A DNA stretch of 63,924 bases, counting the filler, from Circinaria calcarea (taxonomy: Eukaryota): the NCBI GenBank assembly GCA_051942165.1. It is 3 parts of 3 records of this genome, joined end to end, with 100 filler letters (N's around TTAATTAATTAA, not from the genome) between each part and the next. Parts side by side here need not be neighbours in the genome. Positions count along the whole stretch, not along the records: positions 23,302 to 46,461 come from JAVECS010000123.1; 2 more parts are not named here. One strand, given 5' to 3'. The first letter of the stretch is position 1. The number at the start of each line of letters is the position of its first letter. Shown piece by piece: positions 21,722-46,561 of the stretch. The notes under the pieces were generated by a model. The model had not been told where the DNA came from. It did no database searches and saw nothing but the letters and a program-made list of their open reading frames with translations. The position numbers were made by a program, and so were the translations under genes.

Positions 21722-22417
21722 ATGGGAGCTCCTCGTCACTGTAGATGATAACTTATTCTCTGTGAGGTGGCTACTAGCCCATCCGGTACGTCTTGGTAGC
21801 GTGCTGGAATCTTCAAGGTGCGATGTATCGGGTGAGTTGGAGATGACTTCAGGTTTGATGTTTGGCTCGAGGAGAAGCTGAAGGAGTAGATGAAAATGCC
21901 TGTATATAAGGTCCTCTCGGAACTCAAGAGTCGGGAATGGTAATTTCGAGACAGAGGAAAGGGAAAGGTTCTCGGCCTAGAGGGAGATTCTCTGGATAAC
22001 TTAGAGGATACGTGGTGAAGGACTCATATCTATTCACCTGCAATGTAATCCGTTATGAGTGAAATGCTGTCATTAGTTATTTTTTAACTCCCACGAGTAC
22101 TTCGCAGCGATGTTGCCAGCTACGCACACCGCAGTCTTTCTCCTAAGGTCAGAACCCAAAGTGGTCGACGAAGCGTATTGCCTACACGCCTCTGCAGATT
22201 TTGACTAGTTATTTGCCTTATATGACCGATTGATAGAACCTGTTAGCCCTAGTTGAACCGTTTGAAACCCCTATGATATAACCAGCCGGGGCAAAGACTC
22301 TAGTGATATGTGATTCTGACCATGATTAGACGAGATGGAGGACTAAACAGTTGGTATTGGATTTTGGTATAACTTGAGTAGTAACGTGGAGTAAACATAT
22401 ATGGTTCTACCTTGTTC

Positions 22418-23201
22418 CTATCCATTCCTATCCAGGTGCCTCTCGAAACTAGCCAGCAGGTCCTCATCACCGTCTGGAAACCGATCTTCCTGATCCTCGC
22501 GTTGCTTTTGCGGTTCAGCTAAACCATTTAATGGGTTATGTCCCGCAGGCAACTGAGGATTGCCATCTGATAGCAGCTCCGGCTGCTCGATTTCAACCTG
22601 ATTGGTCACATCGATCTGATATTGACTAGGAGCTGGTAGAATGACGTTTTCTTGCATTACCGGTTGTGCTTTGTAGGCTTGGGCGGCAGCCAGGGGAAGA
22701 TCGGGGGAGCTAGAGATGTCCCTCATTATCGGGTTAGTACTTTGTAGTGTATTCCGATTGAATGCGTCGTCTGAGTTGACAGGCTCGATAATCCTTGGGA
22801 TAGGTTTCGCTGGGGATCCCGACAAAGAGCCAGGGGCATCTGCATCAGGCGATGGTGATAGCTCTCCCTCCTCTCGATCTCCGTCTTCTCCATCTTCACC
22901 ATCTTCATCATCGCTTTCGCTGCCTTCTTCGCCGTCTAGTAAAATCGAGTCGTCGCCCATATCGATATCCCGATTTCCTGCAACGTCGGCAATCGAGTTC
23001 TCTTGCTTGATGGTGTTGTCCCCTGCATTTGGCCCCTTGTTCACGATATCACTGTTGCGTGCTGCTGCGTTGGAGCCTGTAACTCCCTCTGCGATATGCA
23101 GACGCTTCTTCTTCCGACCCCGACCTGGCCCCTTTGGCTTTCTCTTCGGTGGAGGCGGCCTTCTTCTCGGTGGAGTCGGCATAACCTCGCCTGCGATGAC
23201 A
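22418..23201 (-). CDS. 3' part of an uncharacterised, probably nuclear protein; 5' end lost at the gap
   Basis: The frame is open from the gap edge: PTPPRRRPPPPKRKPKGPGRGRKKK (NLS-like), an acidic tract, and C-terminal DLLASFERHL. Confidence 0.7.
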
Positions 23202-23301
23202 NNNNNNNNNNNNNNNNNNNNNNNNNNNNNNNNNNNNNNNNNNNNTTAATTAATTAANNNNNNNNNNNNNNNNNNNNNNNNNNNNNNNNNNNNNNNNNNN
23301 N
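23202..23301. other. Artificial contig-joining spacer
   Basis: 44 N + TTAATTAATTAA (stops in all six frames) + 44 N. Confidence 0.97.
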
Positions 23302-26300
23302 GAGTTCGTAAGGGGTTGCGTGGCGGGGGAGGAGAGTTGCGGTTGAGGGGTAGGAGGCTGTGTGGAAGGTCGCGTGGTGGATAAGGCGTTGGCCGATGAG
23401 GGATTTGGGATCTATCAAGTTTGATACATCAGGAATGTGGTAAGGTATTGGGTTAAATTGAAGGAATTGGGGTGATTAGAGACGTACGTTCAGGGTCGAA
23501 TTGGAGTACATGTAAGTTACTGGAAGCATCGAAGACGACAATGTAGAGTTGGTCGGCATAGGGAAGAAAGTCTCCCGTGATCACTTCGATGTGCTGAGTG
23601 GATTTGCTGAAGAGGCGGAGTTGGTATGGATCCTCCTAGAGATTAATTAGTATATGTGTTTGCAAATGATATCATGTGACTCGGCTGTCCTTGGCATACA
23701 GTATATCCAGCGAACCAGACACCTTTGACAGCGTCCCCCATTAAACACAATCCAGTCCCTTTCAACTCTTTGGCCAAACTAACATAACATTGCATGTCCA
23801 TGAATGACACCGGAAGCAATGTACCATCTTCTTTCAATCCTCGCACCATACATTTCTGACCCTGAGCTACTAATAGAAATCCCTCGGTTCCGATTTCAGA
23901 AAGGGCTGTTACGCCGCCTTTGTTGTCTTCCTTGGCTACCAGTTTGAGCTTGAGTCCGGTCTCGGGACGATCAGGCTCAGGCACTACTTCGATGATATCG
24001 AAGACATATATCCGACCTCGAGCTGGAAGATCCTCACCAAGGAGGAAAGTGGTACCAACGGCTACTAGTGATCGACGTGCAGACGTATTCTCCGAAGTTT
24101 CTAGATTCACGGTTTTGATAGACATCACTACCTCGGCAGGGTCAAGATCATACCTGGATAGTCAGCAAACATGGACATCTGCGCCGGGTGATGTCTTACG
24201 TATCGGTGATGGACCAGGTAGATGGGTCAAGAATTTTAATTGATCCATGATCCAGCTGGGGCAAGAAGTTGGTTGCTGCGCAGAAATAATCAGTCGTCAA
24301 ACCCACCGAATTGAGTTTGGTAGCTTACTTTCGGCAGCCCACTCGTAGTGTAGCTCATCCTCTGGTAGTTTAAAATCTACTTTCTGGGATGTGCCCAGCA
24401 CGTATCGATTGGTTCGCTCATGATAATCGAATGACTCTATATGCTCTCCTGAAAATAATTGTTGCGTTACCCAGCCCGTGCTGTAGTCATAATCATGGGG
24501 TAAATGCGCGGCTGATACGTTGCCCTAAAACAGTCAACTTGTACCTACACTTTGTCTTAAATTGGTTCTTACCTCAGTGTCAGAGTACATAAAGCCTCGA
24601 TGGCAAACTGGACTGTGAAAGCTGCTCAGGCTTCGGATACCTCGTAACCGCAGGCTTATTACCTGAGGCAGACTAGATGCAGGTTTGACTATTAAAGCGG
24701 GAGCTGCTCCAGGAACGCAGACGGTACTATATCCGTTGACGTCTTGCAAGGATCGAAGTGGTTGCTTTCGATCCTCAGTAATGCCATAAAGAAGCTCATC
24801 GGCAGTGGGCTGGGTCATGTAAGGATTGGGAACTTTGAGAAAACGCAGCACTGTGTCTGCTTCTCCTTTGAGGGGACATTGAAAAGGCTGATAGATTGTT
24901 ATATCATCATTTGCAGAGCGAAGCTAGGAGCAGTTAGTGTCGTACAGCAATGAACATCCAGGTAGAAGTACAATCATATACGGAGCTTTGGCGGCAGAAT
25001 CACCCAATTCAGCAACCAAAATCTCAACTAATGCCTCCCTCGCAGCTGAACGACGGACTGTGAAATCAGAAGCGAGGAATGGCGGTAAGAAGCTCAATCC
25101 GTCCGCAGTATAGATGGCTTTATCCAAATTTGATAGATGATAGACCTGCAAACACGTATCAGCACTAAATTGTTCCACTTACCGAGGTCGGATATAACGG
25201 GAACTGACCTTCAAGGCGCCTTCGGCACTTAACAAGAACATGAGAAAATTCCCTCCTTCTTCTTGGCTCTCATCATCTGCCTCCAAGTGGAAGACATCAT
25301 TCAAATCGTCAAATAGAGAACCAGAAAGCCACTTGCTGCATTGTAGATCATCTCCATGACCAACCTCTTCCAAATCACCAGATTCCTCCGCCTTAACGAG
25401 CATTACACTAGAGTCGTCCCGGATGAGAAGTACGTAAGGTTCAGCAAAACTTGCGCTGACAACTTTTGGATCGGATTCAGTACTATCTTCAGACAAGGCA
25501 AATATCTGGGCAAGACCGAGGTCTACACTTGTCAGTTAATGCATCTTCTGAGATCTGCAATTCTTTGGAAGATACGGCACGCAATACACATGGACCGAGT
25601 GAATAGTATATAATATATTGTATTGTTACTATCGAATACATTTTTGGAGAGCAAGCTGCAGACACGGTAGTGACTCATGGGCTTATACTGTTCGACTTCT
25701 ATCGTGCCCGTGTACAGCTCACTGTGCAATGCCCACCCTCTGCTACCATCCATAGACTTGGTACAGGATACGAGGGAGTCGACTCTTGGCTGGAAGCCCC
25801 AAGAAAACTGCTTGAACGTAGTACAGCATGTGGAAAGCTTGAAAAATAAATACGCGCACTTACCGCCATCATAAGTTCGAATCTCGCTTTTCAGCACTTG
25901 GATTATTCGCGCGCCACCGCCAAATACACCCACATCAATGGTACCCCCAGCTGTGTCGAAATCGGTTTGTGCAGGCTCTTCCAGGGTTCCAGAGACGAGC
26001 TCATACACGGCCGAATTTTCATTACCCATGTCGCTGGCTCTGGATACAATCAAAATATTGTCATGTTGATCCGGATTCTCAACAATCAACTCCGGCGCCA
26101 TCCCTTCTGGAGAAGCCTTCTGAGCATGTATAGGCCAGACACCATATATATCAGAGATATCCAAGGTATCGTCCACGATGGGAACAATCTTGCGACCTAC
26201 CTTGCAGAGTGATCCAGCTCGACCCTGTCCGGTTGATACTAGCATTCCCTGATTCGGCAGGGACTGAAGCGGTACACCAGCGTTCGACTTCAGATCCTTT

Positions 26301-27919
26301 ACTCCAGTAAATATCACATCACCCAAAGGTGCAAGATTTTTCAACTTGTCATGTATCCGAAATGCATAGTCATCCACTTCACTATTGGTTCCTAGGGATG
26401 GAACTTCAAGCGGAGTTACTCCTTCAGGCTTCGAGCCCGCATACAAGTCATCTTCATCCTCCACATCGTCTTCGTCAAGATCTGAAGCGCTGGCTTCTCC
26501 GTCGATATCCATCTTCAGACCGTATCGTTGCTTCTTAGTCTTGCCTGATCTACGTGACCACCCAAGAACAATAGAGTCTCCGTCTTCGCTCCCGACAAAT
26601 ACTCTGCCGCGTCCGATGTTTGCTGAACATGATGGCGTGGTGCATAAAAGAGATCCACCATTGCGAGAAGCCACAAGTCGTAATGTTAACCCAGAGACTG
26701 ACCTCCCATCCTGTTTGAAGCCTAGTACGGCCAGTTCTCCCGTATTCAGGATAAGTAGCAGTTCCCCGTTCGACGTGCCGAATGGTTCTAGGACACATCT
26801 TTCCAGTCGAAGATTCAGTTCTGACATGTTCGGTAATGCAAAAGAGGAGCATTGCCTAGCAAACTCATTCACAGCAATACCATTTGTTTTACCAGCCTGG
26901 TCCACGTGTATCAGTTCATTGAAGCCGATTAAGAGTGCGCCGCCAACAGGCAAGGGCAGAGGTAGAATCGTATGCAGATCGTAAGGCAACCCTGTGACAG
27001 ACAATAAGGTTGTTGAAGCACGTTGCTCCAGATCCAGCGTGTAGACGGTGTAAGAAATCGTATCCTGTCTCTCAGGTAGCAACGCTGAAGAGACTGCACT
27101 CCGTGACGATAAAACGCCAAAAGTTGGCTCACGATATTCATGTAAGAATGCGAGGTGGATTGGGTGAGTAAGGTTGGGATCCAGTATCATCAGGGGCAGG
27201 ACGAATGAAGCATTGTACGGGGTCTGTGGTAGTAATGTATCACCATTCGTAAGTTTTGCGGGAGATGTCATAGGTTTCGTCTGTTCGTTATCTGCCTCGG
27301 GATCATAGTCGTCCATCACAAGATCATCGCCAGCTTGGTGAAATGGGAGGATGGCTAGATTTCGAGGACCAAATTTCAAAGCTGCACACCGACTGTTCGG
27401 ATCTACAGTCAGGATATTGACACATTGCCCGAATTCTGGCGACCAAGGAGGACCGCGAAAATCTTCTCTCTCGTAAAAGTGTATCGAAATGGTTGATATA
27501 CTGTATCTCTCGGGGTCCCATTCCACCAAACTCAGCTTCGCATCCTGGAGAGCCACAAGCAGAGCCTCGCCCCCGGACTTGGACTGCATGGTCTTGACTC
27601 GACCAAGTGCGGTAACGACCCCTGACAGCTCATACTGGGCAATGAGGACAAGTTTTGTTGTATGGATCCGTTCACCACGATGTGACTTGCGATTATGGGC
27701 CAGAGAATCGAGGTCACCACCTTGGACTGGCCGTCGAGTTGCGCCAGTGTTTTGCCTTCTATTCCCTTCGTTAGTATCCGAGATAACCGACTTCAGCGAG
27801 AATATCTGCAGAAGAGAAGTCTTAGCAACAACGAGATTATTCGCTGCGGCCGAAAGTAATGGCAAGGACACGGCGTGTGTCACTGCCGTAGGAGGGGTGA
27901 GGTCGGTATAGCACTGCAT
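23302..27919 (-). CDS. CFT1: Cleavage and polyadenylation factor subunit Cft1/CPSF160 (multi-exon, 3' truncated by the gap)
   Basis: [27 protein letters not shown]...[59 protein letters not shown] and [12 protein letters not shown]. Confidence 0.95.
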
Positions 27920-46461: not shown

Positions 46462-46561
46462 NNNNNNNNNNNNNNNNNNNNNNNNNNNNNNNNNNNNNNN
46501 NNNNNTTAATTAATTAANNNNNNNNNNNNNNNNNNNNNNNNNNNNNNNNNNNNNNNNNNNN
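46462..46561. other. Artificial contig-joining spacer
   Basis: 44 N + TTAATTAATTAA + 44 N. Confidence 0.97.

Follow-up and report, generated by a model that had tools for sequence, protein, structure and literature searches.

The CFT1 gene of Circinaria calcarea contains an intron that can be read in continuation of exon 1 for approximately 110 codons, and the question raised by this locus is why an intron should be open over such a length. The intron lies in a stretch of 63,924 nucleotides (the window), which consists of three parts of three records of assembly GCA_051942165.1 joined end to end; the part carrying the intron comes from JAVECS010000123.1. An earlier note on this DNA had interpreted the intron as an autoregulatory switch, in which high activity of the CPSF complex would cleave the CFT1 transcript within the intron and yield a stop-less, degraded RNA. 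This interpretation appears to be partly supported by the sequence comparisons described below. Three things were observed: the intron itself, a stop-free frame kept without conservation of the encoded peptide, and a conserved element resembling a poly(A) signal (PAS). The best reading of these observations, to which we give about even chances, is that the intron contains a conserved poly(A) site whose use would produce stop-less CFT1 transcripts cleared by non-stop decay, plausibly as a feedback. The observed features are stated as such in what follows; cleavage at the element, non-stop decay and feedback on CFT1 are what we infer from them.

The boundaries of the intron were defined by homology. 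When the CFT1 protein of Letharia lupina (P0009) was aligned to the window by tblastn, residues 1-679 matched 27919..25868 and residues 681-1204 matched from 25523 onward. The 341 nt from GTAAGT to TAG matched no residue of the homologue and must therefore be a phase-1 intron with exact bounds, with the splice junction TAT GAT GGC G/AC CTC GGT. The features of this region, all on the minus strand, are the following:

25523..25863, minus strand: phase-1 intron of 341 nt, with the CFT1 frame open from the donor to the TGA at 25534..25532; 63 loci have an orthologous intron at this codon
25858..25863, minus strand: 5' splice site GTAAGT, of consensus strength; the orthologues have mostly GTAAGT, GTGAGT or GTATGT
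25531..25535, minus strand: branch point CTGAC, which holds the first in-frame stop (TGA)
25523..25525, minus strand: 3' splice site TAG, placed by sequence and homology
25864..27919, minus strand: CFT1 exon 1, starting with the ATG at 27919..27917 and comprising 685 codons plus 1 nt, identified by tblastn with P0009, P0002 and P0015 and by Pfam
25209..25522, minus strand: CFT1 exon 2, which starts with (G)AC CTC GGT, the D L G of DLGLAQIF

These boundaries agree with those given in the earlier note (GTAAGT...CTGAC...TAG), and the intron is indeed unusually long: the seven other placeable introns of CFT1, the set used for the comparison of size, measure 48-76 nt, and all seven contain an in-frame stop within 16-54 nt. 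The frame had also been read correctly as open for about 110 codons up to the branch point. The probability of an opening of this length was 0.003 by dinucleotide and 0.004 by mononucleotide shuffling (20000 shuffles each), which is close to the earlier estimate of roughly 0.5 per cent.

To see the intron in other fungi, metagenome contigs were scanned with an alignment of 24 CFT1 proteins, which gave 80 loci of 181 confirmed relatives. Both exon flanks were found in 72 of the 80 loci, and these were taken as informative. At the same codon (YD-x/D, phase 1), 44 of them had a long intron (200-454 nt), 19 had a short one (46-62 nt) and 9 had none. Lineages were assigned to the loci by the best named protein. 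By this assignment the long introns belonged to Lecanoromycetes-like loci, Leotiomycetes/Helotiales-like loci and a Sarea/Trichoglossum-like group, and also to some Dothideomycetes-like loci (near Lepidopterella, Dothideales and Coniosporium); three of the long-intron loci (L028-L030) were 99% identical to CFT1 of Cadophora malorum. Onygenales-like and Pleosporales-like loci had the short intron or none. One of the intron-less loci, L019, gave a single uninterrupted high-scoring segment pair over residues 1-1147 with 96% identity to a Rutstroemia protein, as expected of a cDNA-like contig; thus, the class without intron does not always mean genomic absence. Loci L040, L059 and L060 are probably cDNA-like, intron-less CFT1 contigs as well.

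The orthologous introns were not only long, they also avoided stops in the CFT1 frame, both of which the earlier note had made a test of its proposal. In the 38 unique long introns the first in-frame stop was mostly situated near the branch point or was lacking altogether. Examples of the position of the first stop relative to intron length are 233/254, 266/269, 308/328 and 329/341, whereas introns of 314, 317, 326, 337 and 454 nt had no in-frame stop at all. For counting, 24 representative lineages were chosen, whose upstream intron parts are mostly unalignable with each other; in 5 of the 24 there was no stop anywhere in the intron. The numbers of stops per codons scanned in the three sense frames of these representatives were:

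donor to conserved element: CFT1 frame 6/1468; other frames 50/1492 and 44/1480
element to 36 nt past it: CFT1 frame 2/385; other frames 18/386 and 24/387
36 nt past the element to the acceptor: CFT1 frame 36/490; other frames 32/486 and 27/486

Stops were thus depleted in one frame and over one part of the intron, and downstream of the element their in-frame density was normal. The avoidance had a binomial P of 6e-14 and, when the shuffle tests of the individual lineages were combined by Fisher's method, a P of 6.5e-11, both values ignoring shared ancestry. Every intact lineage kept the frame open for 15 nt or more past the element; the position of a poly(A) site in this region is a prediction. 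We consider the comparative signal as such to be secure.

The peptide encoded by the open frame showed no sign of selection. Between close relatives, substitutions were distributed as 15/11/11 over codon positions 1/2/3, and 12 were synonymous and 25 non-synonymous. Intron-encoded peptides of different lineages were unrelated, and the same nucleotides of the element were read in different frames even by relatives (L076 and L080; L027/L073 and L022). Pfam matched no family to the intron-encoded tail of the window. In the sequences compared, the absence of stops is the sole conserved feature of the encoded tail.

The conserved element stands out from an otherwise divergent intron, in which mean column identity was 31% outside this one block. 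Its consensus is CAUGUYnnAUAGCAUCAAU[G/A][A/C]AA. Of the 38 unique long introns, 32 contained the core UAGNNNCAAUNNAA without a mismatch, in loci that resemble several fungal classes. The element lay within a narrow range of 95-128 nt from the acceptor, and the intron part upstream of it varied from about 100 to 330 nt. When the core pattern was searched on both strands of 0.99 Mb of sequence, comprising the loci and the window, 38 of 42 matches fell inside the CFT1 intron, showing that the core is not a motif of every gene's 3' end. The element and its surroundings in the window are as follows:

25618..25641, minus strand: conserved element AUGUAUUCGAUAGUAACAAUACAA, from alignment and anchored comparison, with a core fitting UAGNNNCAAUNNAA with 0 mismatches
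25619..25624, minus strand: PAS-like hexamer AAUACA (AAUGAA in many orthologues), from alignment
25606..25617, minus strand: UA-rich block UAUAUUAUAUAC, just 3' of the hexamer, counterpart of the U-rich 'UUUA' of the orthologues
25583..25609, minus strand: predicted cleavage zone, +9 to +35 nt past the element, placed from the end of the constraint and the Neurospora layout
25576..25580, minus strand: semi-conserved GUGCC block (GUGCY in many orthologues), from alignment

Positions 1-3 and 6 of the hexamer were near-invariant and positions 4-5 variable; the near-invariant positions correspond to those of AAUAAA that are contacted by zinc finger 2 of CPSF30 or engaged in the U3-A6 pair. On the 3' side of the element the orthologues had UUUA followed by CCA or CA, and the GUGCY block 20-38 nt past the element. 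CA dinucleotides occur in the predicted cleavage zone of the window at 25601/25600 and 25592/25591. The poly(A) signal of Neurospora consists of an A-rich hexamer at -30 to -10, of which AAUGAA is the most abundant form, and of a U-rich stretch at -10 to 0, with cleavage usually between C and A (PMC5869017, in the part drawn on here). The CFT1 element and the UUUA/CA following it agree with this layout of Neurospora 3' untranslated regions, as a resemblance between sequences. Unlike the Neurospora signal, the CFT1 element has an additional invariant part, AUAGCAUC, and the element as a whole is essentially confined to the CFT1 intron.

Of the poly(A)-type signals proposed in the earlier note, one part held and the other did not. 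The AU-rich block AACAAUACAAUAUAUUAUAUAC is present at 25627..25606 as described; it starts inside the conserved element, and its 5' half is the element core. The five internal UGUA motifs, which had been taken for binding elements of CFIm, are also all present (first bases on the gene strand 25825, 25765, 25716, 25640 and 25588), with a sixth overlapping the acceptor, and their enrichment in the window intron is marginal (6 observed, 3.2 expected, P ~0.045). Their density was not conserved: 48 were observed and 34 expected from mononucleotide shuffles of the 24 lineages, 5 of which had none, and the conserved element includes no more than the UGU at 25640, so that a role as CFIm elements found no support. 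The predicted cleavage zone (approximately 25609..25583) would meet just the upper end of the interval 25560-25600 where poly(A) sites had been expected.

Open reading frames (ORFs) called mechanically and deposited in protein databases provided a separate sample. Such calls join exon 1 to the intron read through; they add more sequence to the analysis of the open frame and are not evidence of translation. A search with the region around the end of exon 1 of the window listed 120 proteins, and 117 of these had an intron-derived tail. The element was read through in 84 of the 120, in one frame by 60 (..SINT/SINE..) and in another by 24 (..IASIQ/IASMK..), while tails shorter than 40 amino acids were seen in 14. 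For the 64 listed tails terminating inside the intron, the stop came no sooner than 5 codons past the element, with a median of 27, and none ended within 5 codons. A relative of the window's protein (P0121, 93% identical) had a tail of 111 amino acids. A Letharia-like group of 20 among the 120 deserves separate mention, as their whole intron is a multiple of three, stop-free and read in frame into exon 2. The insert had 107-110 codons in 14 of 15 Letharia-like calls measured, and 152 in the remaining one, possibly an artefact of junction finding. Tail identity within this group was 0.54, compared with 0.75 and 0.87 for the flanking exons. Members of the group include P0151, P0158, P0162, P0175 and P0180, and retention of the intron would add ~110 residues to their protein.

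A second search, with a Botryotinia query, yielded 66 Leotiomycetes-like ORFs and 54 more distant ones (48-55% identity); for Botrytis and Sclerotinia the nearest ORF calls were just 86% and 81% identical. The Leotiomycetes-like ORFs were distributed over two open frames (30 and 21), a frame containing the UAG of the element (4), early ends (8) and ambiguous cases (3). The distant ORFs behaved as unconstrained sequence would, 41 of the 54 having tails shorter than 40 amino acids, with a median of 14 codons, and 12 reading through the element. A practical corollary is that mechanical ORF callers regularly output a 'CPSF160' of ~750-830 amino acids owing to the CFT1 intron.

A frame kept open from exon 1 through the PAS-like element, with constraint neither on what follows nor on the peptide, is most simply explained by a biologically relevant, translated transcript ending just after the element. 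In the mechanism that we propose, the intron would bear a conserved poly(A) signal, probably a sub-optimal one, ~95-128 nt upstream of the 3' splice site; it would be made up of an upstream AUGUY..AUAG, the hexamer AAUGAA/AAUACA, a stretch rich in U and a site of cleavage at CA. Whenever cleavage and polyadenylation outcompeted splicing, the transcript would end between a few and ~30 nt past the element. Selection would exclude stops from the CFT1 frame between the donor and the end of the element, and the short transcript would thus lack a stop codon. Translation would continue into the poly(A) tail, the mRNA would be cleared by non-stop decay and the nascent chain by ribosome quality control, and the truncated half-protein, consisting of propeller 1 and a fragment of propeller 2, would not accumulate. 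If there were an in-frame stop upstream, an ordinary mRNA would result, encoding a half-protein broken inside the second propeller. We count the point of truncation in favor of the proposed mechanism, as the product of exon 1 ends within the second propeller. Since CFT1 is the scaffold of the complex that recognizes poly(A) signals, negative feedback on CFT1 output would be the most likely purpose. A more general form of the proposal, that CPSF160 genes of several filamentous ascomycete classes contain a trap of this kind, with a weak intronic PAS and a frame kept stop-free by purifying selection, we consider somewhat short of an even chance.

Feedback through intronic polyadenylation is already known in animals, from CstF-77 and PCF11. 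In the case of CstF-77 (Drosophila su(f), intron 3 of human CSTF3), a conserved intronic poly(A) site mediates feedback and the short transcripts give no apparent protein (PMC3708835, in the part drawn on here; the feedback is cited also in PMC5869017). CFT1 resembles CstF-77 in being a gene for a core 3'-end factor with a conserved intronic site, which in CFT1 is known from sequence only; it differs in belonging to fungi, in encoding the CPSF160 orthologue, in having an intron of just 200-454 nt and in that cleavage is a prediction. We know of no description of a frame kept stop-free in CstF-77. Vertebrate PCF11 limits its own full-length mRNA by premature cleavage (PMC6458999, PMC6428223); the factor, the organisms and the sequence elements are other than in CFT1, and the parts of these papers drawn on here report no stop-free frame. 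Stop-less transcripts arise in Arabidopsis when FPA regulates premature polyadenylation within exons of NLR genes, whereas the intronic sites introduce premature stops (PMC8116057, in the part dealing with these transcripts). The exon frames of Arabidopsis are open by necessity, whereas in CFT1 selection appears to maintain an open intron. Natural substrates of non-stop decay exist in yeast in the form of truncated RNA14 and CBP1 transcripts. In the main texts of the open papers searched we found no intronic poly(A) site or stop-free intron for fungal CFT1/CPSF160, and no feedback of this type for CFT1/CPSF160 or for any fungus; the terms 'intronic', 'autoregulat' and 'non-stop' were all missing from a 2025 review of fungal alternative polyadenylation, and cft1 was unmentioned in a paper mapping transcript ends of Aspergillus fumigatus.

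Several observations weigh against the proposed mechanism. The long intron has been lost in many lineages, which shows that the device, if it is one, is dispensable. Three of the 24 representative lineages had in-frame stops before the element, one stop each in L022 and L006/L020 and four in L017/L018. Among the Leotiomycetes-like ORFs, 8 of the 66 ended early and 4 of the 66 ended at the UAG of the element, and a transcript prematurely polyadenylated in the latter frame would carry a stop. The ~50 nt past the element were poor in stops in all frames, so that the 3' end of the constraint can be bracketed only, between +15 and +35 nt. No lysine runs, which would be a trace of poly(A), were seen at the ends of the intron-derived ORF tails inspected. 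The element is conserved and intron-specific beyond what a generic PAS needs, and is nearly absent from the 3' regions of other genes; it may thus be the binding site of a specific factor that serves another role. Finally, the 5' splice site is strong in the window and in the orthologues, whereas that of the CstF-77 precedent is weak. As a separate observation on the ORFs just mentioned, the CFT1 frame of P0252, P0253, P0262 and P0283 (Leotiomycetes-like) stops exactly at the invariant UAG (..HVL-stop).

The specificity of the element speaks in favor of regulated intron retention, in which the element would bind a splicing regulator and the unspliced mRNA would be exported and read at least up to the element, for instance to dislodge a bound factor or to decide what becomes of the retained-intron mRNA. 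An element unique to the CFT1 intron and far more specific than a generic PAS would fit such a regulator, and the narrow spacing of 95-128 nt to the acceptor hints at an interplay with recognition of the branch point or the 3' splice site. In a retained intron, however, a stop is always met later, either late in the intron or, in another frame, within exon 2, and the exclusion of stops from the upstream part only finds no simple explanation; we know of no precedent. We regard this explanation as rather unlikely. Less probable again is a deliberate short isoform, consisting of exon 1 and a tail of irrelevant sequence, made from a retained or prematurely polyadenylated RNA with its stop in the last third of the intron. 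Such an isoform would agree with the in-frame stop that most lineages have 5-60 codons past the element and with the four Leotiomycetes-like lineages ending at the element's own UAG. It is difficult to reconcile with an unconserved tail read in different frames, with an exon 1 that ends within a beta-propeller and with the 5 of 24 lineages that lack any intron stop, and an arbitrary tail would give no reason to avoid earlier stops.

We put little credence in an alternative 3' splice site or poison exon, by which the invariant, Y-rich AUAG would serve as an internal acceptor and lead to frameshifted transcripts subject to nonsense-mediated decay. The sequence CAUGUCCUAUAG is acceptor-like if cut at its 3' end, and the semi-conserved GUGCY lies 20-38 nt downstream, but the G at +5 of fungal donors is missing from GUGCY, the length of the putative exon (34-49 nt) varies without pattern, and such splicing would take out the upstream intron part, whose stop-free frame it would leave unexplained. 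Translation of the 'intron' as a facultative, exitron-like insert forming a loop of CFT1 is suggested by the 20 Letharia-like calls among the 120 listed, in which the frame continues across the entire intron and on into exon 2. This possibility we hold to be very improbable, for intron length modulo 3 takes all three values in the 24 representatives, the element is read in two frames, the peptide is unconserved even in the Letharia-like group (0.54 as against 0.75/0.87 in the exons), substitutions look codon-neutral, and the insert is missing from annotated proteins and from the cDNA-like contig L019. As for a neutral by-product, that is, a long intron open by luck or hosting a small nucleolar RNA (snoRNA) or a repeat, the window alone would leave some room with its P of ~0.003 only, but recurrence of the open frame across classes, with a combined P of 1e-10 or lower, effectively refutes chance, and no host function came to light: no Rfam family approached its gathering score, the window contained no repeat of the intron, the z-score of folding was +1.23 and no base pairs were conserved. 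We find this explanation scarcely credible.

The searches behind the last statement gave the following results. An Rfam scan of 25300..26100 had a single match, to snoR66, at the level of chance (14.2 bits against a gathering score of 43, E = 9.2) and on the strand opposite CFT1. The intron did not fold more stably than its shuffled versions, and RNAalifold predicted 0 pairs from 23 anchored sequences. A second copy of the intron was sought in the 64-kb window by blastn and tblastx, which returned the self match only; conservation among orthologues also argues against a recent introner-like or repeat insertion. These searches thus revealed no snoRNA or inserted repeat that would account for the length of the intron, the explanations that the earlier note had named as fatal to its proposal. 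A snoRNA host intron was rejected in view of the chance-level Rfam match and the lack of conserved pairs. A coding insert followed by a short 3' intron was rejected, there being no consistent in-frame internal donor and, in several lineages, none at all. An antisense gene was rejected too, as all three antisense registers had an ordinary stop density (4.3-5.5%).

If the proposed mechanism is true, every prematurely polyadenylated CFT1 transcript and its nascent protein would be destroyed, and the trap would act as a clean homeostatic sensor of cleavage and polyadenylation activity. For the first time, selection would be seen to act on the very absence of stops from an intron, and premature polyadenylation could serve as a switch without giving rise to harmful truncated proteins. 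A stop-free intron upstream of a conserved PAS would then be a signature that can be searched for in other genes. The element, compact (~25 nt) and deeply conserved, would also offer a cis element for studies of poly(A) site recognition in filamentous fungi.

The identity of the host gene, transcribed on the minus strand from 27919 downward, was established by homology and Pfam. The closest database proteins were fungal CFT1 (E = 1e-245, 56% identity, 99% coverage), with names from Lecanoromycetes at the top. Membership in the RSE1/DDB1/CPSF1 beta-propeller family is indicated by both full-length similarity and propeller domains: PF10433 was found at residues 87-454 with 59.3 bits (cutoff 26.9), and a partial PF23726 at the end of exon 1 (profile positions 12-92 of 327) with a score under the cutoff. 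Exon 1 codes for the first beta-propeller and merely the start of the second. The gene model covers CFT1 up to approximately residue 1300, the 3' part being interrupted by N runs; there are four such runs of 44 nt in the window (23202-23245, 23258-23301, 46462-46505 and 46518-46561), the first two falling within the 3' portion of CFT1.

Two further observations concern the intron and its gene. The heptamer AUUGCAC, the loop sequence bound by U1A, occurs at 25730-25724 on the minus strand, outside the conserved blocks, and its presence is probably due to chance. CFT1 (22400-27919) has its best named relative, at 56% identity, in Lecanoromycetes, while another database protein is 93% identical, and a biocrust metagenome run contains DNA 90-95% alike, whose contigs span the CFT1 intron without an indel there.

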